DNA of 64,000 nucleotides from positions 12,136 through 76,135 of the forward strand of contig JAYTHE010000026.1 in the NCBI GenBank assembly GCA_043732705.1, in the 5' to 3' direction. Shown here one piece after another: positions 23,191-48,962 of this stretch; position 1 is the stretch's first letter; each line of letters begins with the position of its first letter. The translations under genes and the position numbers were made by a program. The notes under the pieces are model-generated. The model saw only the letters and a program-made list of their open reading frames with translations, searched no databases and was not told the origin of the DNA. This stretch comes from Candidatus Omnitrophota bacterium (lineage in GTDB: Bacteria > Omnitrophota > Omnitrophia > Omnitrophales > Aquincolibacteriaceae).

Positions 23191-23203
23191 GAGTTTTTAA
23201 CGA

Positions 23204-26109: not shown

Positions 26110-26123
26110 ATGAATGATTAAGC

Positions 26124-33125: not shown

Positions 33126-33299
33126 ATGACGCATCCTGAAAAAATAAACACAGATAGTTGGATCGAAATCAAATTGATTGTTGAGCCGGAGGAATATCGA
33201 TTCCTTCAAAAGCAAGCTCAGCGCAAAGACATGATGGTTTCAGACCTAATTCGGCAAATTGTTCTGCGCTACATCGGTAATGAACGGGGGAGTTTATGA
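33126..33299 (+). CDS. Small (57 aa) ribbon-helix-helix-like protein, translationally coupled to the giant gene
   Basis: Absent from the ORF table (below 60 aa). Reads MTHPEKINTDSWIEIKLIVEPEEYRFLQKQAQRKDMMVSDLIRQIVLRYIGNERGSL. The beta-alpha-alpha pattern is CopG/RHH-like. Its TGA overlaps the giant gene's ATG (ATGA at 33296-33299). No strong SD. Confidence 0.4.
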   Translation: MTHPEKINTDSWIEIKLIVEPEEYRFLQKQAQRKDMMVSDLIRQIVLRYIGNERGSL

Positions 33300-36200
33300 G
33301 GTTAAAAAAAACAGTCAAGAAAGTGACCGCGCTTTTTTTGATAGTTACTTTTTCTTGGACAAATTTAATTGGAGCAAATAGCTGGGCGGCAGTCGAGCCG
33401 ATTCAAATGGTTAATGGGCAAGCCACAGCTGTTACCGATCCTTTTGCCACGAATACAAGTACTACTCAGATGGGAACGGTTCCCGTTGATTTTTTAGCGC
33501 AACAACCTGTGGTGACAACCGCTGCCGCAGTCTCCTTGGTTTCAATTGCTCCTACAGCTGCATTAAAATCTACCAACGTATCAAGTTTGTTGGGGAACCC
33601 TAAACCTTATATTCTTTCTAGTTCAACTTCCGCGACAAATCTGAGCTATGTAAACAATGCATTCAATTTTGGTTATAGTGTTCCAAATACTAACGACAAA
33701 TCAGGATTTTCTGTTTCATTTGATAATACAAGTACGGCCTTGATAGAAACGCAAAGCCTAACAAAAATGACCTTGGGTTTGAAGGGCACTGCTTCGACAA
33801 TTCAACTCGAAATCGTGGACTCATCCGGAATGCACGATAAGATTTTACTCACAGGTATTTCAAACACAGTCGAGCAGTTTTGGAAGATTCCAACGGCCTA
33901 CTTTTCTGCTTCAGTGAATAAAGCGAAAATTACTCAAATTAATTTTATTGTTGATCAATCGAATACTACAACCACAGCCCGATCGGGAACTTTGAATGTT
34001 CGGTTGAACGGATTGGATGTCGCTTCGCCAACTGCGCCTCTTGTGCAATCTGCGCCGCCCGCATTTTCAAATGTGAATAATATTACCTTGTCAGGAGCCA
34101 AAGAAGCGAACACATCACTTTTGATTAATGGTGTTGAAGTTATGCCGCGTAATAACTCAACAGCCTGGTCTTATCAGGTGAGCTTGCCCATAGAAGGTAA
34201 ATATATATTCAGTCTGATTGTCAAAAATTCGCTTGGAAAAATCAGTGCGGCATCTACGGTTGCGATAACGCGTGATACTGTTTTACCAACCGGAACAATC
34301 ATAATCGATTCAGGGGCTCTTTATTCCACTGACTTAAATGTGGCGTTGAAGCTTTCGGCGGTAGACGCCGGCAGCGCGGTCAAAAAAATGAGTTTTTCAG
34401 CGGACGGAGTGAATTGGAGTGCTCAAGAAACTTATGTGACTGCAAAAACTCTGACGCTTTCCTCAGGCGACGGTAATAAAACGGTGTATGTGAAATTTTA
34501 TGACGGAGCGGGGAATGCTAGCGCCGTATATTCCAAATCAATCATTGTTGATACTTTACCGCCTTCCGGAACAATTAAAGTGAATGATGGTGTGGCGATG
34601 ATTAATCAACGGGTAGCAATGTTGAATCTTTTAGCTGTAGACGTTGGATCCGGTGTCAGCAAAATGAGTTTTTCAACTAACGGGACTTCTTGGACAACCG
34701 CAGAAGTCTATGGGACAACTAAAGATTGGATATTTTCAGCGGGTGATGGGAATAAAATAGTTTATGTAAAGTTTTTGGATAAGTCGGGTAAATGGTCAAC
34801 GCCGATATCAGCAGCTGTTTTGATGGATACAATCAAACCGACAGGATCAATTAATATTAATTCCGGAGCGGCTTATGTTAATTTGCCTGAGATTGCGCTT
34901 AATCTTTCTGCTGCCGATCTTGGGGGAGCAGGCATCGGCAGCATGAGTTTCTCGTCTGACAATGTGAATTGGACAGTGCCGGAAGCTTACACGACTACCA
35001 AATCCTTTGTGCTTTCTCCCGGCGATGGGAATAAAACAATTTATGTAAAATATTTTGATAAAGCGGGGAATGTGAGTGTCGCTTATTCAAAATCCATTCT
35101 ATTGGATACGATAGCACCAACGGGTACGATGCGTATTAACGGAGGCGAGTCTTTTGTTAGTCAGACAGCCGTAACTCTTAATTTAACCGCAGCTGATTCC
35201 GGTACGGGGCTCGATAAGGTAAGTTTTTCGAATGATGGTGTGAATTGGAGCGTGGCCGAAACATTTGCTGCCGAGAAAAATTGGGTGCTTGCGATTGGCG
35301 AAGATCTTAAAACTGTTTTTGTTAAGTTTCTTGATAAGGCCGGTAATTGGTCAAGTGTAATTTCTAATAGCATTTTTCTGGATGTCACCGCGCCCACGGG
35401 GGCAATCAATATTAACTCCGGCACTGCTTACACAAACTCAAAAAATATCACATTAAATTTATTAGCAAATGATTCTGGCAGTGGTATCGATAAGATGAGT
35501 TTCTCAGTAGATGGAATTAATTGGAGCGCGCTTGAAAATTTTACGGCTTCCAAAGCATGGATGCTTTCTGACAATGATGGGAATAAAACGATTTATGTAA
35601 AATATTTTGATAAAGCGGGGAATGGGAGTGTCGCTTACTCAAAGTCCATTATCCTGGACACTATCGCACCGATTATTGATCTTTTGAATGCGCCGACTCA
35701 TGCAAATAGCGCAAGTTACATGACTCAGTATCGTGTGGATGGCGTATTAAAAGACAAAGCTTTTACGCTTAGCTCCGGAATGAATGCGATTTCAATTCGG
35801 GAAATAGACTTTGCGGGAAATGAAACAATTCGCACATGGAATGTGGAATATTCTACGACGGAAGACATCAATCTTGCCGGCGGTGGGTTGCAACATTTTG
35901 AAAATGGAAAGATTCAGTATCAGGTTAATGCGGACGGGAGCCGGGTTAATTATAATTCGGATGGATCGATTGCGAATTTTTCATGGGGCATAGCGAATGG
36001 AAATACAAAGGTCACATTTTTAAATGACGCACAAAACTCTTTAGAAATACGCGACGCATCCAATCAATTAATCAAGATCATCTCAAATGTAAAACCCCCA
36101 GAGCCTAATTTGAGCAACGCTCTTAAAATTAATTTGCAAGATGGAATCGAGACTTACTATTCAGAAGGTGTCTTGAAGGAAATCCGGACTGCGGAAAATG

Positions 36201-39200
36201 TGAAGCTTTTTAATTTAACGATGTCCGCGCCTGTCTCCGCAAGTGAAGTGCCCGAAATACGGGATGCCGTGATTGCTTATCCTAATGGTTCGATTGACAT
36301 TATGTGGAATAAATTTTTGATCCGCAGAATCACAGTTGATGGATCAATTACAGATATGCTGCCTGACGGAACGATAGGCAGGGAAATTAGCGAGGAAATT
36401 GAGCAAACTTATCTCGGAATTTATGATGCCTCCGGAAATGTTGCAGGGACAAAAATTCTTTCGAATCAAGGCGACGAAGTCACTTACGACGAAAAGGGAA
36501 TTTTAAAAGAAGTCAAAGGGCATGATGGTAAGCATTTTGTTTATGATCGCACACAAAGTGGGAACCAGTATCTTTTAAGCCTAAACGGAGCACTTTCCAG
36601 TTCTGCGTCGGACCAAACGCTTAAATCAGGGAAATATGCGCAAGACGGAAGCGTTCTTGAGCTTGATTTTCAAAATGGCAGCAAAGTAACCTTTGAAAAC
36701 GGACAAATTAAACAGGCTGTAAATGCACAAGGTGAGACGGTTAATTACAGTCAACTGCTAAGCAATGGCCTCGCACAGGGGCTAATGGTGAATCGGGGCT
36801 TAGCCAATTTTACTTATGACATAACCGGTTTTCTCAGCCAGATTCAAACGGAACAAGGAATCATTACCCGCGAACAAGTGGACTCTAATCACGATGGTCT
36901 GCTCAATGACCAAGATACGGTCGATTTGCTGTTGGAGCTGACAGGCGGGAATAAACTCACGGATTTTCAATTGGATGTGAATGGGAAAATTTTAAATGGG
37001 ATTATCGAGACGCGCGAAGGTATAAAGCAGAAAATTGAAAATGGAATTCTTAGAGAGCTAATTACCGCAGATGGCAAAAAATATCTGATACATAACGGAC
37101 AGGCAGAACTTGATACTTGGGCATTTCAGGATGGCATAGTTGTGAAGTATGGCGGTACAAGTATTCAGCAGATTTTGTTTCCAAATGGGAAGCGTTTTGA
37201 GCAAGTGCAGCTTAACGCACAAAAAGAAATTGCAAGCTATGTTGAAATTGATGGTAACACACAAAGTTTTTTTGAAAATGGAATTTTAAAAAAGCGTGTT
37301 TTTGATGGGGTTCAGATTTTTTACTCAATAGATGGACGAGCTCAAAAAATAATCCGTGCGAATGGTGCCGAGGAATTTGTTGAGCATCAATTTGATGTGA
37401 ATGGAAATTGGGTTGGATTAAATCTGGTTAGTGCGGATGGCATGCTTGTTTACGATGAGGATGGAAAGCTTACCGCTATTTTGACATCAGGCTTAACCGC
37501 GCAGGTCGAAGATAGCACGATTAAGAGTCTTTCAACGCGCTTTGGAAATATACAAGATCCCGTTTTTAATGCTAAGGGCAATCTGAACGGAGAGGTTGTT
37601 TTATCAGACGAACGAAAACTTCTCATTCAGGATGGCAAACTTTTACGTATAACTTTTAAAAATGGAACACAGATTGATTGTGCCAATGGTCGCATCTCAC
37701 GCGTTGAAAATTCAGAGGGAATTTATCAGCTTACCTACTTGGAAAACTCTAGTGCCCTTGAGGATGTTAAAGTTAATTATGTCTTAAGCCCCGGTACTTC
37801 TGCCACCGGACTTACGGTTGAAATGAGCCTCGCAAGCTATTTACTAGCTAATCCTTATTCTGAATTTTCAAAAATCATAAGTCCTCGCCCTGCGAAAGAT
37901 ATTTTTGCGGGTGGAATACAAACACAGTTAGGCGCTCATGGTTTACTTGATTTATCAAAGATAGTTGAAGACCAAGATCGCGGAGATACTTACTCCGTAG
38001 GAGGGATTTTTGATCCAAACTTATCAGATATTTATAATTTAGATGGCAACTATAACGGCGGATATCTTAGCAAAAGTCTCATGGGGATGATTGCTTCTGA
38101 TTTACTAGATTTAGATGGAGATGGTGATTTAGACCGGATCTTTGTTGATTCTTCGAAAAATTTTTGGTGGGTTCAAAAATTTGAAAATGGAAGTTTCCTT
38201 TCTGCTGAGAAGTGGATCGGGATAGAGGCGATTGGAAATACAGTCAATAATTTTGCTTTAAGATTCTCTAATGACTCAAACACCGCGGTTATGGGTAACT
38301 TGCTGGATATGAACGGGGATGGCAGGCCTGATCGCGTAGTAGCTTCTGTAAATGAAAATCCCGTTTGGTATGTTCAATTAAATAATGGTGTCGGTTTTGA
38401 TCCGGCTAAAATTTGGAGTAATGTGCAGCCGCTTATCCAAATCAATGCCGGCGATCCTATCAACAAGTACGCGCTACAAGTTCGCGAGAATTCTTCGCAA
38501 AATCAGTTTTTTATCTCTGATTTAATTGACATGGATGGTGACAATTTGCCGGATCGCATTATTCAATCGCAAGCAAGCCCTGTTCCTGGCGCGGATCCAT
38601 TCAATCATTGGTTTTTTCAAAAAAATAACGGACATGGGTTTGATGAAGCTGTCATTTGGAAAGGGATTAACAATTCCTTTGATCTGGATCCTAAGATCGG
38701 CAGCGGCATGAACGTTTTTTTTAATAGTACAACTTGGTTTGATGAAGATCTGCGCCTTGCATTTACAAGCGCCCATGCAAGTTTTAATAACGCTTGGACT
38801 AGCAAAAATATTAATGCTTACCGTGCGACTTTCCTTCTAACTAAGTCAATGGTTAAAGGGCCTCCGGGAATCTTGAATTGGCTTAATAGCCTGGAACCGC
38901 AGCTTTTCGGAACGACATGTGTAAAGAACATATGCACTCAATATATAAAGGAAAACGTATACCAAGCGGCCAACGCACTTTTTTCAAACATTGATTCTGT
39001 CCAAAGAAATATTCTAACCACGAGCGTTCTAAAGGACATGAATGGCGATGGCCGGCCCGATCGAATTTTACTTAAACAGAAGAATCCGAGTAATGCTAAT
39101 TCGGGCTATAGCTGGTACATCCAATGGAATAATGGCAGCGGCTTTGATCCCGCTGTTCTTTTTGATGATCAAGTTCGCAGTGTGTCGGGCAGCATTGCGC

Positions 39201-42200
39201 AGCAGGGAGCATCCACCGCCATTCAATCTTTTTTTGCCTGGGATCAGAAAGAAAAGACACGCAGCTATCTGAGTTATTTAGCGGATGTCACGGGTGACGG
39301 CCTTCCGGACCGCATCACTTTAGATTCTTGGAGCATGGTTCCGGCAAATCGGTGGTGGGTTGAAGTGAATGATGGAAAAACTTTTAAGGATGCTGTTGCT
39401 TGGGATGGTGTGGAAGGTAGTGCTTTAGCCCAAATCGCGCCTTCCCAAGGTATTGAAGGAGCCGCGACGCAGAGTTCGAATGTAAGCGTGATATCAAAAC
39501 TAATTGATATAAATGGCGACAAAATTCCCGACCATATTTTTTTTAAGGAAGGAACAAATCAATGGGTTGTGCAGTATGGAACAGGGCACGGCTTTTTACC
39601 TTCTCAGCCGATGGAAATCCAGGGTATTCGGAACAAAGAAGCATTTAATGCGGCTAAATACGAATATGCGCACATAAGTTTGCGCGCTCAATATCCTGAT
39701 CTTGTTCAAAATGGCAAATTGGTAATTAGGCTTATCGATGAAAATAATAAAGAAGTTCAAAAATGGGAAATTACGGGCGCAAACAATAGCTGGAAAGATC
39801 AATATTTGGCGATTGACCGTGCAAAAACAGGCGGCCGCTATCTGGATGCGCGTTGGGAGCTTAATGCAGGGGTAGTTGCAGCCGATCCGCAAATTTTAGT
39901 CGATGATGTAAGTTTAATTTCGTTGCATCCCAATGCAAGTACGGAATGGCTAGATTATTTGCTTACGGAAGGGAATGTGATTAATGCCGTGCAAGCGGCG
40001 GCGAATGATCCGGCGATTCATGATTTAGCTCAAGTCGTTAATGCGCAAGACACATTTGATTGGAAAAAACTGCTCGCGGTCGAAACCAAAATTAATTTCA
40101 ATGCAACCGGCGCGGTTAGCGGCGCCGAAAAATTAAATGGTGAAACCTCACAAGTTCAAACTTCGGGCAACACAACCACGATTACTGTGGCGCATACCGA
40201 TGGAACTGTTACTCAAACCACAGTTCCCACCGCAGGTAGTTCAAATAGCTACACAAAAAGCATTAACTATGACAATGGAACACCGGATAATTTAACGGAT
40301 GACTACACTGAGATAGCTATGATTGCTTATGATCGTATGCGAAGTGTGACTCGTGACCACAGTCATAAACAACCGCTTCAATATTCTTATGAATTTGATG
40401 AATTAAATCGAGAGATTACAGTTATCTATGATCCTGATTCTAATGAAACTGAAAAATCACGGGCGGTTTCCGGATTAAATGGGGACGAAAATAAAATTGT
40501 CGCGCAAATCGCGGCCAACGGGGTTGAAACTCGCTACACCTACAATGCTTCCGCTGAGCTCACGCGCACCGAAATTACTTATAAGGGGCGCGTACGCGAA
40601 ACTTTTGAGCAAAGTATTACTGCGGACGGCCTTCACGCGCTCAAAACCGAATCGGGCTCAATCGAGTTTTATAATGAGCAAGGACAAATTGTCGGCCATC
40701 GCACAACCGATGGCTATTATTACAAGCATGAATTTGCTCCGGCTAAAACCATAGAGACTTCTATAACCACTAAAACAGTTGTGTTGTGCGATTCCGCAAA
40801 GCAAGATTGTTCAGCAATTCCTGTCGCGCAACGCACGCTTACAGTTCAAATTCCGACAGTTACCTTGACAGACTGTTTAATTAATTGCGAAACCATTCAT
40901 CAGGTTACACTCGATCATCTTACCGACTTAGATGGCAATATTGCTTTTTATACAGGCTCGCAGTTAAGCAGTCTTGAATTATCAACGGGCCTTAAGATGA
41001 CTTTCGACGGAATGATTACCGAAAATAGCAAAGATGTTAATGGTAATGATATTGAAATTACCAAGCCCAAGAACGTGGTCATTTTTCATCAAGATGGAAC
41101 GATCACTGAGTTTAAGAATGGTCTGCCATACTCTGTCACTTCCGCAGCTGGCCACGTTATTTCTATTGAGCCCGACACAGAGACGACGACTACAGGTCGT
41201 GTTGTATTAAAAAATCCTTCCTCCTCCGCCGAGTTTCACTACGCTGAAGCGGTCAAGCTTTGGAATCAGAAAGTTTTGGCTAATTTTGATAAATATCAAT
41301 TGCCGGACAGCCAAGTTGTGCAGGTGGAATATGCAAAGACGGGCAACAAGATCGTTACGCAGCTTTTCGCGTCAGGTGGGCGGGAAATGTATGACGCTGC
41401 CGGGCATATTGACTTTGTGGTTTCCGAAGAAGGGGATCGCATTATTGATTATGACTATGATGCAGCCGGCAATCCTACCGCGATCCATTTAGAAGGCTCG
41501 CGCCGCAAACTTGATCAGACCATATTAGATCTTAAAATTGAAATAGCTTTAAAACAGTATCAGTCTTTACTTGATGTGGCAGAACGCGAGCAGATTTTAA
41601 ATGAAACAGTAGAAAGTCAGTACATTGTTCAACGCAATCAGTTAATCGCGTTACGCGCGCAAATTGAATCGCAGCGAAACCAACTAGCCTCGATTAAAGT
41701 TAAAGGCAAAGCCGGTAAAAATTCAATATCGGACGCGATGCAGCAAATTAATGTTGGTCTCGGGCAGGTGAATCAGGCTTTATACCAATTGCTCGAAAAT
41801 CGTACGCAAGCGCTCGCGAATTTACAAGGCCAGGTGAAAAATCTTAATACGCAGATTAATGACCAAACAACGCAGGCTTACACGGACATTTCAAATAAAG
41901 AAAGAGAAGTTCAAAATTCAATCCTGACGCAGGAAATTTCGCCGATCGTTTATCACTGGTACCGCACAATTCTTGGTCGCGATCCCTCTGAGTCGGAGTA
42001 TGAAGCTGCCAAGTCTTTGGCCAACTATAGCTCGGGGACATTTAACCTTACAAGTCTTAAGGCGCAGCTTCAAAATAGCCCTGAATATGTCCAACGCACA
42101 GCGGAAGTAGCCGCGATTAAAGCCGCAGTTAAGACGCAATTGCTTAATTATTTAGCGGCAGATGACGCCGGCAAGCAAGCCTTTGTCGCAGGTTTAGGAA

Positions 42201-45200
42201 TTAATTCTCAAAATAGAGTGTCTCTTGCTCGGGCTGAAGTGGATGCAATTTTTGTATGGATGGATAAGCAAAACTTGCACTTTGGTCAATCCGCTTTCAT
42301 TTCCTTAGAAGCGCTGCTTGACGATGCGGGCATTGCGCACAACCGCATTAATATGGCGCGGGATTTAATTTTAACTGACATTATTACCGGTACTCTTACT
42401 CCGATTGAAAAAGGTGATTTGCTTATTTCGATGTATGCGATGAATGCCTATGCCGCCCGGTTTGGTTTAAATTTATCGCCACTCAAACTAACTTACGACG
42501 CCCTCAAGTCTATTTTTGATACTTGGTGCGTTGAGCATGGTTCATGCGCGGGATTCCGTTTGGTTGCGCATATGGATGGTAATCATTACGTTGTAGTTAC
42601 AGGCATTACTACGCGGGTTGAAGATGGGAAGACTATCGAAGAAGTTCACTATACTGATCCGGGCGCGGGCAAGAACGGTGACGAAGCGGTTGTCGTATCC
42701 AAAGATGATTTTTTGAAGTATTGGATTAATCAATCCGCAAAGTTAGACAGCCCGGATGCATCTAACTTACAAAACTCAGCTATGGGTTATATCCTCTCGC
42801 CGCGCGCGCCTCCGGCTGCTAAAAAAAGTGAATTCCGTGTTTTAAATTTCACAGAGCAAATGCAGGTTCGCGGCTCCTTCTTCTTTCTCATTCCCATTAT
42901 CGTAGCTGCTATCGTTGTAGCTATTCATGCCATTGTTGGCGCAATTATCGCAGCGATCACGGCGATTATCGGCGCACTCGTAGCAAGTGTTAGCACAATC
43001 ATTACCGGTTTCACCACGTTCTTTGGTGGATTATTCGGAAATTTCTTAACAACATTCTCTGGATTTTTTACCGGAATATTTCACGGTTTGACTTCGCTCG
43101 GCGGACTTGTTTTTAATGCGATTACGTACGGTCCTAATGCGGTTCTTGGAGTGCTTGGCCTGAAAGCCGGAACCTTTCTCGGCAGCGTGGTTTTCTCAAG
43201 CTTGATAGGCGCTGAATTCTTGGGTGCAGGAAAGCTTTTAGAATTGACGGGTTTGTCCCCAAAATTCGCGCAAACGATTATTAACTTTGGAAAAATTATC
43301 ACGGGTGTCAGTCTTATCGCAACGGGCGCTGGAAGTGTTCTTGGATTCGGATTCATCAGCGCGGGAACAACGGATTTGCTCCATGCCTATACAAATCTTT
43401 CACCGCAGTTTATCAATGCTCTTTCCATTGGTGCGCAGGCATTAAGCGCGTTTGGAATTGGTGGAGTTATCGGCGGAACTATCCAAGGCGCAATGAATGC
43501 GCTTAAAGAAGCAACTCCATTTTTGACGAAAGAGCTTTCATCGCTGGGGTTGCTTAGTTTTGGGACGAGCAAAAGCCTCAGGCTCGCTGCCTTGCTTGAA
43601 ACCCCGATCAATTTATTTACGGGCGCACTTTTGGGAGGAGGGTTTTCAGCAGCTAATATTCTGAACTCCGTCAAAACGGCGCTTTTTAGTCAGCAAGCAC
43701 TTGCTAGTTTTATTTCGATCGGGGCGCAAGTGGGACTGAATGCATTACCGATTAACCCTCTTTTGGCCGGCTTAGGCGGGGTAGTTATTTCGGGGCTGAT
43801 TGATGGATTGGTTCCGGTCAAAAAAGTTCCGGGCTTGGAAATTGGCGCGCCTATTTTTGAAACAACTTATCAATTGAAAGGCGTGCTGGAAGGATTAAAA
43901 AATGCCGTTCAACGCGCCTTCAATACTGTTTTGGAGACTCTTAGAACAGAGTCAGTGCGGTTTGACGTATCAGTTGCGAAAAATGGACTTAAAGCAACTC
44001 TCTCCGACATTGTAGCAAGCGCGCTTGACCGCTCTTCAATTGAAGGTTTGATTGGAACTGTCGGTAACCTCTCGGATTATATTGAAGACAAATATAACAA
44101 TCACTCCACGATCGTTAATTATCACGGTTCGCCGGCTAAAGAAGTCACTTTGGATGTAAATGGTAAAACCGTCATTATGACATTCGATCAGGCGACACAT
44201 GAACTTTTGCGCGTTGATGGCAGCAATGGGCATATTTTAGAAGGCGATTTGCGGCTTGGGGCGAATGGAAATATATACGCTTTTAACGGTTCGGAATTAA
44301 CCTCTGGAGCCAATGGCGTCGTGCAACAGTTTACTTATGAAGACGGCAATCTTGTTTTTTCGCGCTATGTCGGTGATGGTAAAGGCGCGGATTGGTACCC
44401 TGAGCAAGGTAAGAAATTAACTCTTTATTCAGACGGACAATTGCGTGACGGCATTATTGAAGACTTGAGTTCGGGCGCAAAGACGGTTGTGCGCAACGGA
44501 AAAATTATTGAAGTTATCAATCCGCTTAAGCTTGAAATCGCACCGAATTCAATCGGCGGCGAGCAAGTTCCACTTTTTGAGCAGGCAGGGCTGCTTGGCG
44601 AAGATGGAAAATTCACAAATTATGAATATCGAATCAATTCCGCGGCGCTAAAAGGAATGCGGTCAGATGATTTAAGCAGCGCGGCGTTGACGGGCTTAAA
44701 AGAATCCATGAATGATCTTTCCAGTTGGCAGGGAACACCGGCAGGATTTGCGAAAACAGGTATTCAAAAAGTTCAAGCATGGGAGGAGAATTTTTATGCG
44801 GTGAACGGCAGTCCTCTGACAAATCGCGGTTCCTTGGGTGTTTTTCTTGCGGCAGGAGCCATTAAAGGCGTGTTCGATATTGGCAATTTTGGAACAGACA
44901 CGTACTTGGCGGTGGAATCATTAAAAGAAGCGATTCGAACCGGGGAATTCGAAACCGGCGCGAAGAATTATTTTGATAATTGGAAAAATTCGCTTCTCAC
45001 TAATCCTTTGATTTCTGTGGCTAACGTATTTGGAGTCAACACCCCCAATTTAAATCAAGCCGTGTCGTCTATGGGCAACGAAACCATGCGCGTCATGAAT
45101 GCCTTTGGCACCGCAGAAATGGTCAAGGTTTTATGGCCGTACAAAGGAATTTTCGCTACGGGGTTAGTATCTGCTCTGAAAGATGATTTTGGACAGCTCA

Positions 45201-45748
45201 TTAGGAGTGAAGGCGGGTATATTCGAATTGTTCGAGAAACTTTTGGGGAAAGAGTATCAAGATTGCTTGGAAATCCTACCAGCGGTAACTTAAATGAGAT
45301 CGAGGGATTATTACGAAATAAAGTCAATATGCAGGAGGTCTTATTTAAAGAATATAAGAGTGCAACAGATGTGACTGAGGCGGCTCAACGCGGCTTTTTA
45401 AATTTGGATGTTAATACAGCACGATCATTTAAAGGCGGACAGTATCAAGTTAGAGTTTTATCGGAAGATCTTGTAGTGTATCGAGCAGAAGGTGGATTGG
45501 CCAAAAAATATGGCGCATTTTTTGGCACTGAAAAACCTATTAATGCTTACGATGCGGATCGGCTCTATAATGTCGTTGTGCATGGCAATGATGTGCAAGA
45601 GGTTTCTACGTATATAATTAAAAAAGGCACAGTGGTCTACGAAGGTGGGGTAGAAGGTGGGGTAGGTGTTCAAATGTTTTTGAGAAATCCAAAAGAAAAA
45701 GATGTGGCTCTTTTAGCTACAGAAATCTTAGAAAGAAGTACTACATGA
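33296..45748 (+). CDS. Giant (4150 aa) secreted multidomain protein: Ig-like tandem repeats, YD/RHS-like repeats, FG-GAP-like Ca-binding repeats, coiled coil, DUF4214-like motif, C39-like peptidase motif, 330-aa glycine-zipper hydrophobic region, variable C-terminal domain (polymorphic-toxin/teneurin/Tc-toxin-like architecture)
   Basis: Single uninterrupted 12.4 kb ORF. Signal peptide MRLKKTVKKVTALFLIVTFSWTNLIGANSWA. Five ~93-aa repeats (DT-PTG-I-IN-G...GDGNKT-YVKF-DKAGN). YD-like segments (VYDEDGKLTAI, ETRYTYNASAELTRTEITYKG). Six FG-GAP-like repeats of the form L-D-[MLI]-[ND]-G-D-G-x-P-D-R (written xDxNGDGxPDR elsewhere). Heptad-rich region at aa ~2740-2880. VYHWYRTILGRDPSESEYEAA (DUF4214-like). 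CAGFRL ... NHYVVVTG (Cys...His). aa ~3192-3521 is hydrophobic and G/A/I-rich. Confidence 0.85.
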   Translation: MRLKKTVKKVTALFLIVTFSWTNLIGANSWAAVEPIQMVNGQATAVTDPFATNTSTTQMGTVPVDFLAQQPVVTTAAAVSLVSIAPTAALKSTNVSSLLGNPKPYILSSSTSATNLSYVNNAFNFGYSVPNTNDKSGFSVSFDNTSTALIETQSLTKMTLGLKGTASTIQLEIVDSSGMHDKILLTGISNTVEQFWKIPTAYFSASVNKAKITQINFIVDQSNTTTTARSGTLNVRLNGLDVASPTAPLVQSAPPAFSNVNNITLSGAKEANTSLLINGVEVMPRNNSTAWSYQVSLPIEGKYIFSLIVKNSLGKISAASTVAITRDTVLPTGTIIIDSGALYSTDLNVALKLSAVDAGSAVKKMSFSADGVNWSAQETYVTAKTLTLSSGDGNKTVYVKFYDGAGNASAVYSKSIIVDTLPPSGTIKVNDGVAMINQRVAMLNLLAVDVGSGVSKMSFSTNGTSWTTAEVYGTTKDWIFSAGDGNKIVYVKFLDKSGKWSTPISAAVLMDTIKPTGSININSGAAYVNLPEIALNLSAADLGGAGIGSMSFSSDNVNWTVPEAYTTTKSFVLSPGDGNKTIYVKYFDKAGNVSVAYSKSILLDTIAPTGTMRINGGESFVSQTAVTLNLTAADSGTGLDKVSFSNDGVNWSVAETFAAEKNWVLAIGEDLKTVFVKFLDKAGNWSSVISNSIFLDVTAPTGAININSGTAYTNSKNITLNLLANDSGSGIDKMSFSVDGINWSALENFTASKAWMLSDNDGNKTIYVKYFDKAGNGSVAYSKSIILDTIAPIIDLLNAPTHANSASYMTQYRVDGVLKDKAFTLSSGMNAISIREIDFAGNETIRTWNVEYSTTEDINLAGGGLQHFENGKIQYQVNADGSRVNYNSDGSIANFSWGIANGNTKVTFLNDAQNSLEIRDASNQLIKIISNVKPPEPNLSNALKINLQDGIETYYSEGVLKEIRTAENVKLFNLTMSAPVSASEVPEIRDAVIAYPNGSIDIMWNKFLIRRITVDGSITDMLPDGTIGREISEEIEQTYLGIYDASGNVAGTKILSNQGDEVTYDEKGILKEVKGHDGKHFVYDRTQSGNQYLLSLNGALSSSASDQTLKSGKYAQDGSVLELDFQNGSKVTFENGQIKQAVNAQGETVNYSQLLSNGLAQGLMVNRGLANFTYDITGFLSQIQTEQGIITREQVDSNHDGLLNDQDTVDLLLELTGGNKLTDFQLDVNGKILNGIIETREGIKQKIENGILRELITADGKKYLIHNGQAELDTWAFQDGIVVKYGGTSIQQILFPNGKRFEQVQLNAQKEIASYVEIDGNTQSFFENGILKKRVFDGVQIFYSIDGRAQKIIRANGAEEFVEHQFDVNGNWVGLNLVSADGMLVYDEDGKLTAILTSGLTAQVEDSTIKSLSTRFGNIQDPVFNAKGNLNGEVVLSDERKLLIQDGKLLRITFKNGTQIDCANGRISRVENSEGIYQLTYLENSSALEDVKVNYVLSPGTSATGLTVEMSLASYLLANPYSEFSKIISPRPAKDIFAGGIQTQLGAHGLLDLSKIVEDQDRGDTYSVGGIFDPNLSDIYNLDGNYNGGYLSKSLMGMIASDLLDLDGDGDLDRIFVDSSKNFWWVQKFENGSFLSAEKWIGIEAIGNTVNNFALRFSNDSNTAVMGNLLDMNGDGRPDRVVASVNENPVWYVQLNNGVGFDPAKIWSNVQPLIQINAGDPINKYALQVRENSSQNQFFISDLIDMDGDNLPDRIIQSQASPVPGADPFNHWFFQKNNGHGFDEAVIWKGINNSFDLDPKIGSGMNVFFNSTTWFDEDLRLAFTSAHASFNNAWTSKNINAYRATFLLTKSMVKGPPGILNWLNSLEPQLFGTTCVKNICTQYIKENVYQAANALFSNIDSVQRNILTTSVLKDMNGDGRPDRILLKQKNPSNANSGYSWYIQWNNGSGFDPAVLFDDQVRSVSGSIAQQGASTAIQSFFAWDQKEKTRSYLSYLADVTGDGLPDRITLDSWSMVPANRWWVEVNDGKTFKDAVAWDGVEGSALAQIAPSQGIEGAATQSSNVSVISKLIDINGDKIPDHIFFKEGTNQWVVQYGTGHGFLPSQPMEIQGIRNKEAFNAAKYEYAHISLRAQYPDLVQNGKLVIRLIDENNKEVQKWEITGANNSWKDQYLAIDRAKTGGRYLDARWELNAGVVAADPQILVDDVSLISLHPNASTEWLDYLLTEGNVINAVQAAANDPAIHDLAQVVNAQDTFDWKKLLAVETKINFNATGAVSGAEKLNGETSQVQTSGNTTTITVAHTDGTVTQTTVPTAGSSNSYTKSINYDNGTPDNLTDDYTEIAMIAYDRMRSVTRDHSHKQPLQYSYEFDELNREITVIYDPDSNETEKSRAVSGLNGDENKIVAQIAANGVETRYTYNASAELTRTEITYKGRVRETFEQSITADGLHALKTESGSIEFYNEQGQIVGHRTTDGYYYKHEFAPAKTIETSITTKTVVLCDSAKQDCSAIPVAQRTLTVQIPTVTLTDCLINCETIHQVTLDHLTDLDGNIAFYTGSQLSSLELSTGLKMTFDGMITENSKDVNGNDIEITKPKNVVIFHQDGTITEFKNGLPYSVTSAAGHVISIEPDTETTTTGRVVLKNPSSSAEFHYAEAVKLWNQKVLANFDKYQLPDSQVVQVEYAKTGNKIVTQLFASGGREMYDAAGHIDFVVSEEGDRIIDYDYDAAGNPTAIHLEGSRRKLDQTILDLKIEIALKQYQSLLDVAEREQILNETVESQYIVQRNQLIALRAQIESQRNQLASIKVKGKAGKNSISDAMQQINVGLGQVNQALYQLLENRTQALANLQGQVKNLNTQINDQTTQAYTDISNKEREVQNSILTQEISPIVYHWYRTILGRDPSESEYEAAKSLANYSSGTFNLTSLKAQLQNSPEYVQRTAEVAAIKAAVKTQLLNYLAADDAGKQAFVAGLGINSQNRVSLARAEVDAIFVWMDKQNLHFGQSAFISLEALLDDAGIAHNRINMARDLILTDIITGTLTPIEKGDLLISMYAMNAYAARFGLNLSPLKLTYDALKSIFDTWCVEHGSCAGFRLVAHMDGNHYVVVTGITTRVEDGKTIEEVHYTDPGAGKNGDEAVVVSKDDFLKYWINQSAKLDSPDASNLQNSAMGYILSPRAPPAAKKSEFRVLNFTEQMQVRGSFFFLIPIIVAAIVVAIHAIVGAIIAAITAIIGALVASVSTIITGFTTFFGGLFGNFLTTFSGFFTGIFHGLTSLGGLVFNAITYGPNAVLGVLGLKAGTFLGSVVFSSLIGAEFLGAGKLLELTGLSPKFAQTIINFGKIITGVSLIATGAGSVLGFGFISAGTTDLLHAYTNLSPQFINALSIGAQALSAFGIGGVIGGTIQGAMNALKEATPFLTKELSSLGLLSFGTSKSLRLAALLETPINLFTGALLGGGFSAANILNSVKTALFSQQALASFISIGAQVGLNALPINPLLAGLGGVVISGLIDGLVPVKKVPGLEIGAPIFETTYQLKGVLEGLKNAVQRAFNTVLETLRTESVRFDVSVAKNGLKATLSDIVASALDRSSIEGLIGTVGNLSDYIEDKYNNHSTIVNYHGSPAKEVTLDVNGKTVIMTFDQATHELLRVDGSNGHILEGDLRLGANGNIYAFNGSELTSGANGVVQQFTYEDGNLVFSRYVGDGKGADWYPEQGKKLTLYSDGQLRDGIIEDLSSGAKTVVRNGKIIEVINPLKLEIAPNSIGGEQVPLFEQAGLLGEDGKFTNYEYRINSAALKGMRSDDLSSAALTGLKESMNDLSSWQGTPAGFAKTGIQKVQAWEENFYAVNGSPLTNRGSLGVFLAAGAIKGVFDIGNFGTDTYLAVESLKEAIRTGEFETGAKNYFDNWKNSLLTNPLISVANVFGVNTPNLNQAVSSMGNETMRVMNAFGTAEMVKVLWPYKGIFATGLVSALKDDFGQLIRSEGGYIRIVRETFGERVSRLLGNPTSGNLNEIEGLLRNKVNMQEVLFKEYKSATDVTEAAQRGFLNLDVNTARSFKGGQYQVRVLSEDLVVYRAEGGLAKKYGAFFGTEKPINAYDADRLYNVVVHGNDVQEVSTYIIKKGTVVYEGGVEGGVGVQMFLRNPKEKDVALLATEILERSTT
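34270..35680 (+). repeat. Five tandem ~279-bp coding repeats (Ig-like modules) inside the giant gene; repeats 3 and 5 are near-identical at the DNA level over ~100 bp
   Basis: GATGGGAATAAAAC(A/G)ATTTATGTAAAATATTTTGATAAAGCGGGGAATG ... CGCTTA(T/C)TCAAA at about 35028 and about 35578. The protein-level periodicity is listed in the call. Confidence 0.8.
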
Positions 45749-46107
45749 TTAAATCTTTATCCGAAACTCGCAAATCAATTGTAGAAATAGTTGGGTTTTT
45801 GAAAGTGCACAATGATTTAGTTTGGACTAAATATTTGAGTGGAATGCTTTCGGAGTTTGACAGGGTTTTTGGTGGAGCCGAAGTAGATCAGCAGGGTGGA
45901 AAAAGTATTTTAGAAAAAATCGACAAGCTATTCGGTGGCATGGGCTCATTGAATGATTTGAATATTTACAAAGAGAATGGTCATATTGTAAGTAATGAAA
46001 GAGAAGCCAATGTGGAATTAAGCAAATTACGATCAAGATTATTTGATAATGTTCAGAGAAGTATTTTGGAGATGCAGCAACAACAGGAGAGATCGGAACA
46101 TTTCTAA
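45745..46107 (+). CDS. Small (120 aa) cytoplasmic protein translationally coupled to the giant gene's stop; candidate immunity/partner protein
   Basis: Its ATG at 45745 overlaps the giant gene's TGA at 45746-45748 (ATGA). No signal peptide. Acidic, helical. Motif SILEKIDKLFGGMGSLNDL. The assignment rests on position only. Confidence 0.5.
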   Translation: MIKSLSETRKSIVEIVGFLKVHNDLVWTKYLSGMLSEFDRVFGGAEVDQQGGKSILEKIDKLFGGMGSLNDLNIYKENGHIVSNEREANVELSKLRSRLFDNVQRSILEMQQQQERSEHF

Positions 46108-46153
46108 AAGTGCCAGGTCTAAAAGGACAAAAAGTTGAAAAAGATATTAAGTT

Positions 46154-46741
46154 ATGCCAAGAAGACCAAGAGTATTAGTAGATGGTGGAATCTATCATGT
46201 TTTTAATCGTGGAAATAACCGACACGATTTATTTTGTGATCAAGAGGATGCAGGAATTTTCCTTTCGTATTTATATGAAATCAAGCAAGAGCTTGGGGCG
46301 AGCATCTATCACTATTGTTTGATGACCAACCACTTTCATTTTTTGATGAAGGTTGAGAGGGGCGAGGACTTGTCGAAAGTGATGCATAGAGCACAATTGG
46401 GATATGCGCGTTACTTTAAGCGAAAATATAAATTTGTTGGGCATGTGTTTCAGGAACGGTTTCGAAGCCCATTAATTGATAGAGAGGCTTACTACCTCCA
46501 GTGTGGGAGGTATATCGAGCGCAATCCTGTCAAAGCGGACATGGTGAAGAATGCCTGGGACTACGAATGGACGAGTGCTACGTATTATGCGCTAGGTGAA
46601 AAGGATGGAATGATAACTCCAAACCCATATTATGAGGGAATGGGCAAGGATGCAGCGAGTCGGCAGGAGAGTTATCGTAGCTTTTTAGCGATCGAAGATG
46701 CTTATTCAAAGTTAATTGATGAGGCTTTAATTAAATGTTAG
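46154..46741 (+). mobile_element. IS200/IS605-family Y1 (HuH) transposase of the REP-associated tyrosine transposase (RAYT, COG1943) type
   Basis: IYHVFNRGNNRHDLFCDQED ... YHYCLMTNHFHFLM (HuH motif HFH) ... catalytic Tyr in YIERNPVKADMV. Matches the RAYT signature YI..NPVKA. Confidence 0.8.
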
Positions 46742-47040
46742 TAATCGAACCCGGCACTTTTAGAAATGTTCCGATCTCTGTTCTAAGATATGCCAGTGAA
46801 CAAAATGGAGCTGGTAGTTTTTTAACCAAAAGTAATTATTCAGATGTCGCTCAAGCTGTTAGTGGATTAAACTTGGAGCCAACTAATAATTTAGCAAGTT
46901 ATAAACAAGTGGTTATGGTGGAAAAACCCACGCTGGTTTTAGAAGGTAAAATTGCCGGAAGTGGTGATGGTTCTGTGCAATCAATAGTCCTCGAGAAAGA
47001 TAGCTTTGTTTTTCAGGCAGGAGAAAGTATTAATGATTAA
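46735..47040 (+). CDS. Hypothetical small protein (101 aa), coupled to the transposase stop
   Basis: ATG 46735 overlaps the RAYT stop by 7 nt. AT-rich DNA. No motif recognised. Confidence 0.4.
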   Translation: MLVIEPGTFRNVPISVLRYASEQNGAGSFLTKSNYSDVAQAVSGLNLEPTNNLASYKQVVMVEKPTLVLEGKIAGSGDGSVQSIVLEKDSFVFQAGESIND

Positions 47041-47311
47041 TAAAGTTTTAATTCAACTAGAAGCTTTAATTCGTCAGTTAGAAACGCCCTTACAAGAAGA
47101 AGAAAAACAGCAAGGGTGGACTGAAGAGAAAAGAAAGATATGGTTGAATTATTTTATTTCGGTGAAGCTTGAAATTAAACTTAAAGGAATTGAATATTAT
47201 AAGAAAAATTCCAAATCAATCATTAGGTCCTTAGATTCTCATAACATCCATGGCGGCAATATTCTCGAAAGCGCTTGTCGCCTTGAAAATTTGGTTCATG
47301 ATTTAAAATGA
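47033..47311 (+). CDS. Hypothetical small helical protein (92 aa; alternative start 47006)
   Basis: ATGATTAA overlap with the previous stop. Predicted helical. No motif recognised. Confidence 0.4.
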   Translation: MINKVLIQLEALIRQLETPLQEEEKQQGWTEEKRKIWLNYFISVKLEIKLKGIEYYKKNSKSIIRSLDSHNIHGGNILESACRLENLVHDLK

Positions 47312-47469
47312 AACTCTGGCACATCGGTTTAATCATTCTTCTTGTGTCGCTGCTTATCAGCGTATTGCTTGTCCATGCTGAAATCGGCGGCCTTATTCGC
47401 GATCTTTTTCGCATCCTTACGCTTGCTGGACTCGTGCTTCTTATTTATGGACTTATTAAGCATAAATGA
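47308..47469 (+). CDS. Putative 53-aa two-TM membrane peptide
   Basis: Absent from the ORF table (below 60 aa). ATGA overlap with the previous stop. Reads MKLWHIGLIILLVSLLISVLLVHAEIGGLIRDLFRILTLAGLVLLIYGLIKHK. Confidence 0.35.
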   Translation: MKLWHIGLIILLVSLLISVLLVHAEIGGLIRDLFRILTLAGLVLLIYGLIKHK

Positions 47470-47558
47470 CTGGGGCAAAGATTGAATTTTTTCAAAGGTA
47501 GTGAGTCTAAGAAAATAGATTCGTAGTTATGATTCTTAAAAATAAACAGGAGAAAAAT

Positions 47559-47960
47559 ATGAAAACCTTAGCATCCGTATTTGCAGTTATGATTTTATTA
47601 AGTGGATGTAACGCGGCCAGCCATCGTGCGGCGGTTCAGGATGACTCCACGGATCGTTTGACTGTGGGAAATGTGCAAAGAGAAATTCATGTTGGCATGA
47701 GCGGTGCTGATGTGGTTCAGGCACTAGGTTCACCCAATGTTGTAACTACGGATGAGCAGCGCCGCGAAGTTTGGGTTTATGATAAAGTTGCTTCCGATGC
47801 CACATATTCAAACAGTTCAGGCTATGGCACGCTAATTCTTTTAGGCTATAGTAAAGATGCTGGATCGGTTTCGACTACTCAAAGAACTTTAACTGTTGTT
47901 GTGAAGTTTGATGAGAAAAAAATGGTCCGAGACTTTGCTTATCACAGCTCGAAATTTTAA
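47559..47960 (+). CDS. Lipoprotein, BamE/SmpA_OmlA-like
   Basis: RBS AGGAG. MKTLASVFAVMILLSGC lipobox. Motif LTVGNVQREIHVGMSGADVVQALGSPN ... EVWVYD. Confidence 0.55.
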   Translation: MKTLASVFAVMILLSGCNAASHRAAVQDDSTDRLTVGNVQREIHVGMSGADVVQALGSPNVVTTDEQRREVWVYDKVASDATYSNSSGYGTLILLGYSKDAGSVSTTQRTLTVVVKFDEKKMVRDFAYHSSKF

Positions 47961-47991
47961 AAATAGAACTGATTTGTGCGGATTTAAAAAT

Positions 47992-48534
47992 ATGAAACGC
48001 ATTGCAGCTTTTGTCTCAGCCTGTTTAATATTGACCGGCTGTATGTCTATGCCGCTGGATATTTTAAAATCTCCAGCGGATGCGGTTCAAAAGCGTGAGC
48101 TCCAGAGTCGGGCTTATGCCACGACCGATGAAAATAAAATGATCACATCGGCCGCTATGGCGCTCCAGGATATGGAGTTTACCTTAGACGATAGTGAAAC
48201 TTCACTTGGCGTGGTATTAGCATCAAAGGATCGAAGTGCTGTGAGCGCCGGTCAAGTTACTGCGGCAGTGATGCTTGATGTGCTTGCGGCGGCAGGGGGC
48301 GGATATTCAAATGCTTATGGAACAACTGACAAGCAACAAAAGATACGCGCTTCAGTTGTGACAAAACTGAGTGAAGATAGATCAAAGGTTATTGTCCGCA
48401 CTGTTTTTCAAAAACTGGTTTGGAATCAAATGGGGCAGCTTTCTCGAGTTGAAACGTTGAAAGACGCGACGATGTATCAAGGGTTTTATGATAAATTGTC
48501 TAAATCGGTATTTCTTGAGGAACAAAAAATATGA
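47992..48534 (+). CDS. Lipoprotein, uncharacterised family (paralog A)
   Basis: MKRIAAFVSACLILTGC lipobox. Shares motifs with the next gene (R-Y/F-T-D ... QD-E ... FY..LSKSVFL..QK). Confidence 0.55.
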   Translation: MKRIAAFVSACLILTGCMSMPLDILKSPADAVQKRELQSRAYATTDENKMITSAAMALQDMEFTLDDSETSLGVVLASKDRSAVSAGQVTAAVMLDVLAAAGGGYSNAYGTTDKQQKIRASVVTKLSEDRSKVIVRTVFQKLVWNQMGQLSRVETLKDATMYQGFYDKLSKSVFLEEQKI

Positions 48535-48962
48535 AGTCAGATTTTTGTAAAAGAATATTTATCGCGGGAGTGATGCTTTTTTTTGTAGGGTGCACGAGCT
48601 CTCCATCGAAGAGTGTTCTTGCGACCGATGCGAGTCAAGTGATGTTGCGTAGTATGCAGACACGTGCCTTTGATACAAGTGATCAGTCAAAAACAATGCG
48701 TGCGGTGATTGCCACTGTTCAAGATCTTGAGATGGTGATCGAAAAAGCGGATCAGCAGTTGGGGAGTGTGACTGCAACAAAATTTAGCAGCGGACAAGAG
48801 CTTAAAATGACTGTTACGGTGAGAAACGGAAATCCTGGACAAACTCTGGTGCGTGCTAATGCGCAATATGGAATTAAGCCTGTTGATAAGCCAGAGCCCT
48901 ACCAGGACTTTTTTTCTGCACTTGAAAAATCGATGTTTTTAGCCGCGCAAAAAGTCGATTAA
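48531..48962 (+). CDS. Lipoprotein, uncharacterised family (paralog B)
   Basis: MKSDFCKRIFIAGVMLFFVGC lipobox. ATGA overlap with paralog A. Motifs RAFDTSDQ ... QDLEMV ... FFSALEKSMFLAAQK. Confidence 0.55.
   Translation: MKSDFCKRIFIAGVMLFFVGCTSSPSKSVLATDASQVMLRSMQTRAFDTSDQSKTMRAVIATVQDLEMVIEKADQQLGSVTATKFSSGQELKMTVTVRNGNPGQTLVRANAQYGIKPVDKPEPYQDFFSALEKSMFLAAQKVD

Follow-up and report, generated by a model that had tools for sequence, protein, structure and literature searches.

Layout of the locus and modules of the giant protein

The window analysed here is a 64-kb stretch of contig JAYTHE010000026.1 from a Candidatus Omnitrophota bacterium, and it contains a candidate polymorphic toxin locus centred on an open reading frame (ORF) of 4150 aa (33296–45748, + strand). 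This giant ORF is preceded by a 57-aa ORF (33126–33299) and followed by a coupled ORF of 120 aa (45745–46107), a Y1/RAYT transposase gene specifying 195 aa (46154–46741) and three small ORFs, all on the + strand. The first of the small ORFs, ORF5 (46735–47040), lies 3′ of the RAYT gene and has its start codon within the 3′ end of that gene. ORF6 (47006–47311, 92 aa, with a likely ATG at 47033) overlaps the end of an orphan toxin remnant described below, and ORF7 (47308–47469), which encodes 53 aa with two transmembrane (TM) segments, is ATGA-coupled to ORF6. All of the ORF coordinates given in a preliminary description of this DNA proved correct, and the ATGA overlaps that it noted, between the 57-aa ORF and the giant gene and between the giant gene and the 120-aa ORF, are present in the sequence, as are the overlaps of ORF5 with ORF6 and of ORF6 with ORF7. 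The Shine–Dalgarno sequence of the giant gene (GGGGGAG) sits inside the 3′ end of the 57-aa ORF.

The low GC content that had been reported downstream of the giant gene is real but patchy. It is confined to two patches, one of 0.36 at ~45.3–46.2 kb, covering the toxin tip and immunity gene, and one of 0.34–0.36 at 46.8–47.6 kb, while the RAYT gene that lies between them has a host-like GC of 0.43. The drop from 0.45 to 0.36 occurs at about nt 45,300, which is the start of the shuffled toxin module. GC skew identifies the + strand as the leading strand.

The giant protein begins with a probable Sec signal peptide (33296–33391; MRLKKTVKKVTALFLIVTFSWTNLIGANSWA/AVEP cleavage), recognised by inspection of the translation. 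About six Ig-like/OmpL47-type beta-barrel repeats (aa ~330–880; 34283–35935), taken to form a surface stalk, are matched by Big_7 (E 9e-12) and, in four stretches, by NCBIfam barrel_OmpL47 NF047446 (E 7e-18, 64.9 bits against a cut-off of 40). They are followed by degenerate YD/MORN-like beta-repeats (aa ~880–1560; 35933–37975), for which the MORN_2 and RHS_repeat matches are sub-threshold only, and by an FG-GAP/TcdB-midN type beta-propeller (aa ~1560–2130; 37973–39685), for which both profiles exceed their cut-offs (FG-GAP_3, E 2e-17, 64.2 bits, four stretches; TcdB_toxin_midN, 28.8 bits against 24.8). A second set of YD/RHS-like repeats (aa ~2130–2780; 39683–41635) is detected by TIGR01643 YD_repeat_2x (24.8 bits, cut-off 15.8), with Pfam RHS_repeat below its cut-off. 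A coiled coil is also part of the conserved body of the protein. The module list of the preliminary description therefore stands for the Ig-like, FG-GAP, YD, C39-like and Gly-rich parts, and fails for RHS repeats as defined by Pfam. A motif scan showed that the Rhs-core cleavage motif, DPxG[LWMIV], is absent from the whole giant protein.

The next region (aa 2869–3175; 41900–42820), which is conserved and forms the signature of the family, is a DUF4214-like segment (ILGRDPS) joined to a C39-like, papain-fold module. An AlphaFold (AF2) model of the C39-like domain, built on a 5-sequence alignment (pLDDT 79.6), matches C39 domains and shows the papain-like C39 fold, but the catalytic Cys-His dyad of peptidase C39 is not retained. 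Residues His2995, Phe2996, Ser2999, Ala3000, Asp3028, Gly3032, Ser3045 and His3097 are invariant across 29 sequences; the nucleophile position (HFGQSA) is thus occupied by an invariant Ser2999 in place of the C39 catalytic Cys, together with the invariant Asp3028 and His3097. The peptidase proposed earlier thus has the C39 fold with Ser at the place of the catalytic Cys, and the modelled domain could be a protease of a Ser/His(/Asp) variant type or else a binding domain that, like that of HlyB, has no catalytic function.

Hydropathy and composition define a hydrophobic, glycine-zipper-rich block beyond this module (aa ~3188–3570; 42857–44005). It has 14.7% Gly, 15 small-xxx-small-xxx-small motifs and ~5–6 strongly hydrophobic segments, and is conserved in orthologues (P0002–P0005 and related loci). 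The block presumably acts in membrane insertion or translocation, or alternatively as a membrane anchor. Taken together, the C39-like (Ser) domain and the hydrophobic block are a candidate for a new translocation device.

Proposed toxin tip, immunity gene and scaffold family

The C-terminal part of the giant protein comprises a variable pre-toxin region (aa ~3600–4035; 44093–45400), which diverges from all orthologues and has no Pfam match, and the toxin tip (aa ~4036–4150; 45401–45745), which represents a new sequence family with a Tne2/Tse6/TNT NAD(P)+ glycohydrolase (NADase) fold. The last 300 aa gave no match in Pfam, NCBIfam, PDB sequences or a word-indexed protein search. An exhaustive HMMER search of 1.84 billion cluster representatives recovered 158 relatives at E ≤ 1e-3 (58 at E ≤ 1e-10), and the strong matches all align to aa ~4034–4146 of the giant protein. 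In 137 of 148 proteins, which range from 93 to 4,735 aa in length, the domain ends no more than 10 aa from the C-terminus. Partner domains found by Pfam among 88 of the proteins were RHS_repeat (7), DUF637 (2), TPS, TEN_YD-shell, PT-HINT, LXG, PT-TG and DUF6531, and the only part common to the giant protein and its long relatives is aa 4036–4147. A C-terminal position on many unrelated scaffolds is the defining distribution of a polymorphic-toxin domain, and the tip is, on this evidence from sequence comparison, a discrete, horizontally shuffled toxin domain.

The AF2 model of the tip, based on a 37-sequence alignment, has a pLDDT of 89.7 and a pTM of 0.81, and displays the palm fold of TNT, Tse6 and Tne2. 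Its top Foldseek matches were Tne2 (E 6e-5), Tse6, Serratia Rhs1-CT and fungal NADases. These matches are experimentally shown NAD(P)+ glycohydrolases, and PDB 6xtd is an NADase rather than an ADP-ribosyltransferase (PMC10539506). The residues conserved across the family are all kept in the window tip, namely Arg4063 (VYRAEG), Asn4092 (LYN) and a GGxGxQ motif ending at Gln4126. Neither the window tip nor that of any of the 88 relatives is covered by a Pfam family, TNT/Ntox or other, and the profile of the tip finds no PDB chain; phmmer and profile comparisons with PDB returned an alpha/beta hydrolase (E 0.002) and an antibody chain, which were rejected as noise. The functional assignment of the tip therefore rests on its fold, which suggests that it hydrolyses NAD(P)+ or, possibly, transfers ADP-ribose. 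The earlier proposal that the C-terminus is a toxin domain agrees both with the HMMER distribution and with the NADase fold model.

Part of the pre-toxin region (44555–45304; aa ~3770–4003) has distant relatives in P0033 (678 aa, E 7e-18) and P0050, which carry no Pfam annotation there. It is possible that the pre-toxin region constitutes an uncharacterised domain of its own, serving for entry or as a linker.

The 120-aa product of the coupled ORF has no signal peptide and matches Pfam DUF6966 (E 1.4e-9). In four unrelated loci (L051, L053, L054 and L055), the same toxin domain has a homologous DUF6966 ORF directly after it or fused to it. In protein P0027 a DUF6966 segment with homology to the window ORF (E 2.5e-11) forms one polypeptide with the toxin domain; a homologous ORF of 110–115 aa overlaps the stop codon of P0010, a DUF6531-RHS toxin; a DUF6966 homologue overlaps P0023, an unclassified toxin of 1,040 aa, in the same way; and one adjoins the YD-shell toxin P0059 on its 3′ side. 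When the five proteins are aligned, one Trp is invariant and a GMGSLxDL...G[HL] core is conserved. The His of a strongly conserved ENGH motif may be the basic residue of a loop that would reach into the active-site cleft of the tip, as in the Tne2–Tni2 and Rhs1CT–RhsI1 complexes. The recurrence of DUF6966 beside or fused to the toxin domain upholds the suggestion that the coupled ORF confers immunity, and its product is the predicted cognate immunity protein of the tip. No mention of DUF6966 was found in the literature searched. From one known NADase toxin family to another, the immunity proteins show no relationship, so that a new immunity family is to be expected, and delivered toxins as a rule have immunity proteins that are cytoplasmic (PMC10539506).

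The scaffold family was collected by a pattern scan of 185,579 species genomes, which found 48 loci, almost all from Candidatus Omnitrophota, with some labelled as uncultured bacterium or Planctomycetia. When the DUF4214-like, C39-like and hydrophobic region was used as a query, it retrieved four database proteins only, all from metagenome-assembled genomes. Thirty orthologues with a complete 3′ end were compared with the window protein. Similarity stops at aa ~3450–3800 in most of them, two give weak alignments that carry on to ~aa 3807 (L043) and to ~aa 4044 (L034), and none of the alignments includes the toxin tip. Over their last 250 aa, the orthologues fall into several unrelated groups, none of which matches the window tip or immunity gene. 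The closest relative, L002, shares 63% identity in the core and the same downstream rRNA methyltransferase gene, and carries a lipase-like tip with a TPR immunity protein. Locus L039 has both flanks as in the window, with a FadL gene upstream and three lipoprotein genes downstream. In view of these shared flanks, the giant gene is a chromosomal gene inherited vertically, with a tip that is replaced. The scaffold is a family nearly confined to Omnitrophota, in which the body and the C39-like/hydrophobic module are conserved and the tips differ; variability of the C-terminus among related genomes, which had been put forward as a check, was thus observed.

The tip of one further orthologue (L003:12734–13633) matches Peptidase_C92, a permuted papain-like amidase (E 3e-7), and the tips therefore include likely cell-wall/lipid-directed enzymes besides NADase and lipase-like domains.

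The RAYT unit, displaced tips and flanking genes

The RAYT gene is intact. It matches Y1_Tnp (E 7e-13, 49.1 bits against 23), scores 78.8 bits with NCBIfam REP_Tyr_transpos (cut-off 80), and shows by inspection the HUH motif (HFH) and the Tyr motif (YIERNP). Its product is 55% identical to RAYTs found at the same position in L001. A feature that the preliminary description did not mention is a 31-nt inverted repeat bracketing the RAYT gene (left arm, 46088–46118; right arm, 46749–46779), with arms that are 97% complementary and a chance expectation of 0 matches. The immunity gene is ~8 aa longer than its homologues, and its final six codons and stop codon lie in the left arm; the right arm encodes most of the ORF5 N-terminus. 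In 9 of the 11 closest RAYT relatives, the arm core lies 2–8 nt past the stop codon. In L002 the left arm is identical at 27/27 nt, and the 5′ end of a truncated RAYT gene stands directly past that locus's own immunity gene; DNA homology between the window and L002 restarts at the first base of the left arm, and the flanking genes are 68–73% identical.

A third copy of the arm was not found elsewhere in the window, the giant gene included, with up to 3 mismatches allowed. Movement of the tip as a transposon is thus not supported, as it would need a third arm inside the giant gene. Nor do the arms qualify as REP hairpins, because they do not self-fold: they fold no better than shuffled sequences (z about 0).

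Directly past the right arm begins a displaced, 5′-truncated and divergent copy of the toxin domain (46780–47040, + strand), and this copy is what ORF5 really contains. When the window was scanned in six frames with a hidden Markov model (HMM) of 149 toxin sequences, two matches only were obtained, the giant tip (E 7e-44) and nt 46780–46971 (30.7 bits, E 6e-8), the latter aligned from model position 45 of 127. On the strength of this match, ORF5 is read as an older tip of the same family. BLASTP found no similarity between ORF5 and the giant C-terminus, and hhalign with a 37-sequence profile gave a suggestive 48%. ORF6 was rejected as a DUF6966 immunity protein by HMM scan and comparison, and belongs to no Pfam family either; we keep it as a candidate for an orphan immunity gene from another family. 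Homologues of ORF7 end the toxin array in L025 and L034, and ORF7 is therefore probably a conserved locus-boundary gene instead of cassette cargo. Of the orphan cassette that had been proposed downstream of the RAYT gene, what remains is a truncated toxin tip in ORF5; ORF6 is not DUF6966, and ORF7 probably does not belong to it.

Similar arrangements occur in other loci. L001 has three RAYT copies and one partial copy, with arms that contain the core ACCCGGCACTTTTRGAA or are of a second type, and its orphan C-terminal modules start directly past right arms. Orphan modules also lie directly 3′ of RAYTs in L005 and L037, and L025 has the layout seen in the window and L001 (the layout was compared, not the homology of its short remnant). 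In two genomes, orphan ORFs start in or just upstream of the right arm and read in frame through it. Downstream sequence of 2.2 kb or more was available for 27 orthologous loci, and ten of these carry a RAYT gene or RAYT remnant, on the same strand and starting 0.4–2.1 kb past the stop codon. Metagenomic RAYT relatives with enough flanking sequence likewise numbered 27, and eight of these are just 3′ of RHS or giant toxin genes, including those for a 17-repeat RHS protein and an SpvB-TcdB-FG-GAP-RHS protein. Exclusive linkage of RAYTs to toxins was rejected, as only ~30% of related RAYTs adjoin toxin genes. We regard the RAYT unit as a genuine marker that recurs at the cassette boundary; its enrichment at toxin loci is strong but not exclusive.

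Several additional features were seen at related loci. In L002, a VapB-like RHH (ribbon–helix–helix) ORF of 78 aa and a PIN-domain ORF of 131 aa (14995–15623), identified by sequence reading, lie directly past the truncated RAYT, and the variable island of this locus appears to end in a toxin–antitoxin pair and not in an orphan tip. L001 carries a partial tandem duplication (16060–16444) of the RAYT 3′ part and right arm, 98% identical to the full copies. It directly precedes a remnant of the last 25 codons of the main gene. In L001 the main gene is followed by a 65-aa ORF, and the remnant is fused to a homologue of this ORF. Contig Ga0209515_10000839 (53 kb; L057, L068 and L060) carries a 17-repeat RHS gene followed by ~40 kb with at least three RAYTs of two subtypes and RHS orphan fragments, and may be a very long, RAYT-punctuated orphan array. 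Downstream of a RAYT relative in L059 (7593–7660), the right-arm motif CTTTTGGAAATGTTCCGGTTTTTCCG occurs twice in tandem, suggesting that local multiplication of arms is possible.

At the left edge of the locus, the 57-aa ORF has weak RHH-like similarity, with scores that are all below cut-off (Pfam NikA-like, 23.3 bits against 27; NCBIfam RelB, 23.7 against 50), and no homologue was found in the 48 related loci. It had been described as part of the system, and was discarded as a conserved component because the scores are sub-threshold and the linkage is not kept. Divergently oriented upstream of the giant gene is a gene for a FadL/TodX-type outer-membrane channel (31391–32815, − strand), which is kept in L039 with 50% identity; a part of this channel in export of the giant protein is conceivable. 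Three lipoprotein genes lie 3′ of the giant gene (47529–48962), a BamE-like gene of 143 aa followed by two paralogues of 208 and 143 aa that are 32% identical. Their order is the same in L039, and the right-hand limit of the toxin island in its ancestral state seems to lie at these genes. Other genes of the window include housekeeping genes, an RND efflux operon and histidine kinases. Three of the latter, at 20888–28427, are paralogues with a 7TM sensor (HisKA_7TM), situated in and around an AT-rich stretch (GC 0.36–0.38 at 24–27 kb) that also contains a methyltransferase gene.

Interpretation and relationship to known toxin systems

We consider it likely that the locus is an Omnitrophota polymorphic toxin, consisting of a giant surface protein, a replaceable NADase-fold tip, a DUF6966 immunity protein and a RAYT unit at the 3′ edge of the tip-immunity module. 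Four hallmarks by which such toxins are recognised (Zhang/Aravind; Jamet & Nassif) are present, namely differing tips, unrelated scaffolds bearing the same toxin domain, an adjacent immunity gene and downstream orphan cassettes. The proposal of a polymorphic-toxin system made in the preliminary description is borne out by the differing tips, the shuffling between scaffolds, the immunity family and the orphan tip.

By analogy with TM-domain effectors of the Tse6 type, the giant protein would be exported by Sec and displayed on the surface of a very small, probably host-attached cell. Upon contact with another cell, the C39-like module would process or chaperone the C-terminal part, and the hydrophobic block would insert into the target membrane, like the TM domains of Tse6-type effectors. 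The tip would then enter the target cell and deplete NAD(P)+, while the cytoplasmic DUF6966 protein would block it in the producer and its kin. Recombination (C-terminal displacement) would bring in new tip-immunity modules, the left homology being supplied by the conserved body of the gene. The RAYT unit would serve as the right homology anchor, or may be an element settling in the only intergenic gaps of the arrays.

Several results weigh against this interpretation. For the tip, there is no sequence-level match to TNT/Ntox families or PDB chains, its fold superfamily also includes ADP-ribosyltransferases (at lower Z), and NADase activity, toxicity and neutralisation are properties that we infer. 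For delivery, the Ser in place of the C39 Cys may signal a non-catalytic, HlyB-like domain, the hydrophobic block may merely anchor the protein in the producer membrane, as proposed for other long Omnitrophota proteins, and no genes for type I, type V, type VI or type VII secretion systems (T1SS, T5SS, T6SS, T7SS) or for TpsB were found in the window. For the RAYT unit, ~70% of related RAYTs adjoin unrelated genes, 17 of the 27 orthologous loci have no RAYT, and the arms of the inverted repeat do not fold as REP hairpins.

A more active part for the RAYT unit would be played if HUH nicking of single-stranded DNA at the arms created recombinogenic ends, or mobilised modules, so that tips were exchanged or captured at a defined boundary. 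The position of the unit coincides exactly with a module boundary in the window and also in L001 (three and a half copies), L005, L025 and L037; the first base past the right arm is where orphan modules begin, and orphan ORFs run in frame through that arm in two genomes. Homology between the window and L002 restarts at the left arm, which is identical at 27/27 positions against 68–73% in the flanking genes. The RAYT subfamily and arm core also occur 3′ of unrelated RHS and Tc-like toxins, and the RAYT gene is co-oriented with the toxin gene in every case. Nevertheless, the giant gene lacks the third arm that could serve as a left end for tip movement, the cargo is outside the arms and not between them, most related RAYTs adjoin unrelated genes, and most orthologous toxin loci have no RAYT. 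As toxin-immunity pairs overlap, the module junctions are the only intergenic gaps that tolerate insertion. Y1 transposases (IS200/IS605) insert with a replication-strand bias, and, the + strand being the leading strand, co-orientation is expected anyway. Ordinary explanations (tolerated junctions, strand bias and a homology anchor) are sufficient to account for the RAYT position, and an active role in tip diversification is judged unlikely. We hold out a similarly small chance for the broader proposal that the RAYT and its arms are a domesticated HUH device guiding tip switching and, jointly, that the C39-like (Ser/His) and glycine-zipper modules form a self-contained delivery device independent of T5SS, T6SS and T7SS.

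It is also conceivable that the giant protein is a membrane-anchored fibre or adhesin whose NADase stays in the producer cytoplasm and acts with DUF6966 as a toxin–antitoxin or abortive-infection-type switch. The hydrophobic block could leave the C-terminus cytoplasmic, and TM anchors near the C-terminus have been proposed in other long Omnitrophota proteins; the DUF6966 protein has no signal peptide, delivery machinery is lacking nearby, and Rhs elements of Salmonella are reported to be type II toxin–antitoxin modules (PMC7043789). Yet the same toxin domain is also carried by TPS/CdiA-type, LXG and RHS scaffolds, which are export/delivery scaffolds, cytoplasmic immunity is the norm for delivered toxins (PMC10539506), and tip polymorphism among close relatives together with displaced tips is the signature of diversifying selection from cell–cell antagonism. 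Retention of the toxin in the producer is accordingly regarded as improbable. An ordinary repeat adhesin or S-layer-type protein with unrelated small ORFs and a transposase downstream, named as the main alternative in the preliminary description, would suit the Ig-like, YD-like and propeller repeats of the N-terminal two thirds, which are typical of adhesins, and the lack of a supported function for the RHH ORF and ORF6, but is rejected as very improbable in view of a C-terminal domain with a high-confidence NADase-toxin fold and the distribution of polymorphic-toxin tips, a next gene whose family recurs 3′ of the same toxin domain, and a second toxin-domain copy in ORF5.

The polymorphic toxin proposed here most resembles the Rhs/YD NADase toxins (Serratia Rhs1/RhsI1; Tne families) in having a large, repeat-rich protein with a variable NADase-fold tip, an immediate immunity gene and displaced remnants, and its toxin family is also found on true RHS proteins. 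It differs from canonical Rhs proteins in that the DPxGL aspartyl autoprotease motif is absent and the RHS repeats are weak. Furthermore, the toxin is placed ~1,300 aa past the YD region, behind the C39-like module and the hydrophobic block, and this distance makes canonical encapsulation impossible. There are no PAAR, VgrG or T6SS genes nearby, and the toxin belongs to a separate family with DUF6966 immunity.

The Tse6/Tne2 effectors of T6SS likewise combine a hydrophobic TM module with an NADase tip and a dedicated immunity protein. Their tips are only 10–13% identical to that of the window, with no match at the sequence level, and the window TM block (330 aa) is rich in glycine zippers and internal to a 4,150-aa Sec-type protein that lacks prePAAR/PAAR. 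Tsi6 and Tni2 are unrelated to the window immunity protein, which is normal for NADase toxins (PMC10539506). CdiA shares the very long surface protein, the modular C-terminal toxin with its immunity gene and the downstream orphan arrays, and the window toxin domain is also found on TPS+DUF637 proteins. In contrast to CdiA, the giant protein has no TPS domain, FHA/Haemagg repeats or VENN-type motif, and the window contains no CdiB/TpsB gene. With the Tc toxin components TcB/TcC, the giant protein has in common an FG-GAP and TcdB_toxin_midN propeller and YD repeats, and the gene for a Tc-like SpvB-TcdB-RHS protein has the same RAYT downstream; it differs from them in lacking SpvB and the aspartyl-protease core, in the absence of a TcA-like gene from the window and in a toxin that is not beside the shell. 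The membership of Rhs, Tc or CdiA families implied earlier is not upheld, there being no DPxGL, SpvB or TPS in the protein and no partner or secretion genes in the window.

In Escherichia coli, H-rpt insertion sequences separate the orphan tips of Rhs elements from the main gene, and the window locus is comparable in having a transposase gene past the tip and a small ORF, with orphan tips beyond. The window element is, however, an HUH/Y1 RAYT with 31-nt inverted arms and not a DDE-type insertion sequence, and its type recurs at the same boundary across divergent genomes and toxin scaffolds. The REP/RAYT systems (REPINs) also place a RAYT-type Y1 HUH transposase between inverted copies of a subfamily-wide sequence, but the window arms are not self-folding palindromes and have no dispersed copies in the 64 kb. 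RAYTs are typically single-copy (PMC5581495), unlike the several copies in the one locus of L001.

Two preprints (West-Roberts et al. 2023; a 2026 preprint with 176 complete Omnitrophota genomes) have described long Omnitrophota proteins ('Archaeovorins' and related) that contain C39-like domains and, close to the C-terminus, TM segments. The giant protein resembles them in phylum, in its very long, secreted form and in its C39-like domain and C-terminal TM segments. The topics of the preprints are different, being cell-wall degradation, dockerin and SecA-like domains, and when their text was searched neither yielded any reference to toxin tips, immunity genes, polymorphism of tips or orphan arrays bounded by RAYTs. 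The earlier impression that the protein corresponds to no nameable family thus needs qualification: the scaffold is an Omnitrophota family whose C39-like and TM parts appear in these preprints, and its toxin tips, immunity genes and RAYT-bounded cassettes do not.

The locus thus works like Rhs/CdiA-type toxins that diversify by C-terminal displacement, and what is new is the scaffold, which has none of the delivery signatures of T5SS, T6SS, T7SS or Tc toxins, the toxin family, the role of DUF6966 and the recurrent RAYT boundary. The toxin family was previously unannotated, comprises ~160 clusters and is also found on Rhs, CdiA-type and LXG scaffolds, and DUF6966 receives its first functional assignment, as the immunity protein of that family. 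To our knowledge, the mechanism of tip exchange is poorly understood even in classical Rhs genes, and the presence of a RAYT and arms at the cassette boundary, across genomes and toxin types, hints at a route. If the RAYT unit were an active device, no earlier case would be known of polymorphic toxins diversifying with the help of a transposase, and the device would also operate in some RHS/Tc-like toxins.

Omnitrophota are widespread, uncultured bacteria of very small size that are suspected to live on other microbes or to prey on them, and we know of no established role for their very long proteins. The locus offers one of these giant families a testable role, the contact-dependent delivery of an NAD-depleting toxin. 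If the C39-like and glycine-zipper modules do form a delivery device, it would be one used by ultra-small episymbionts or predators.

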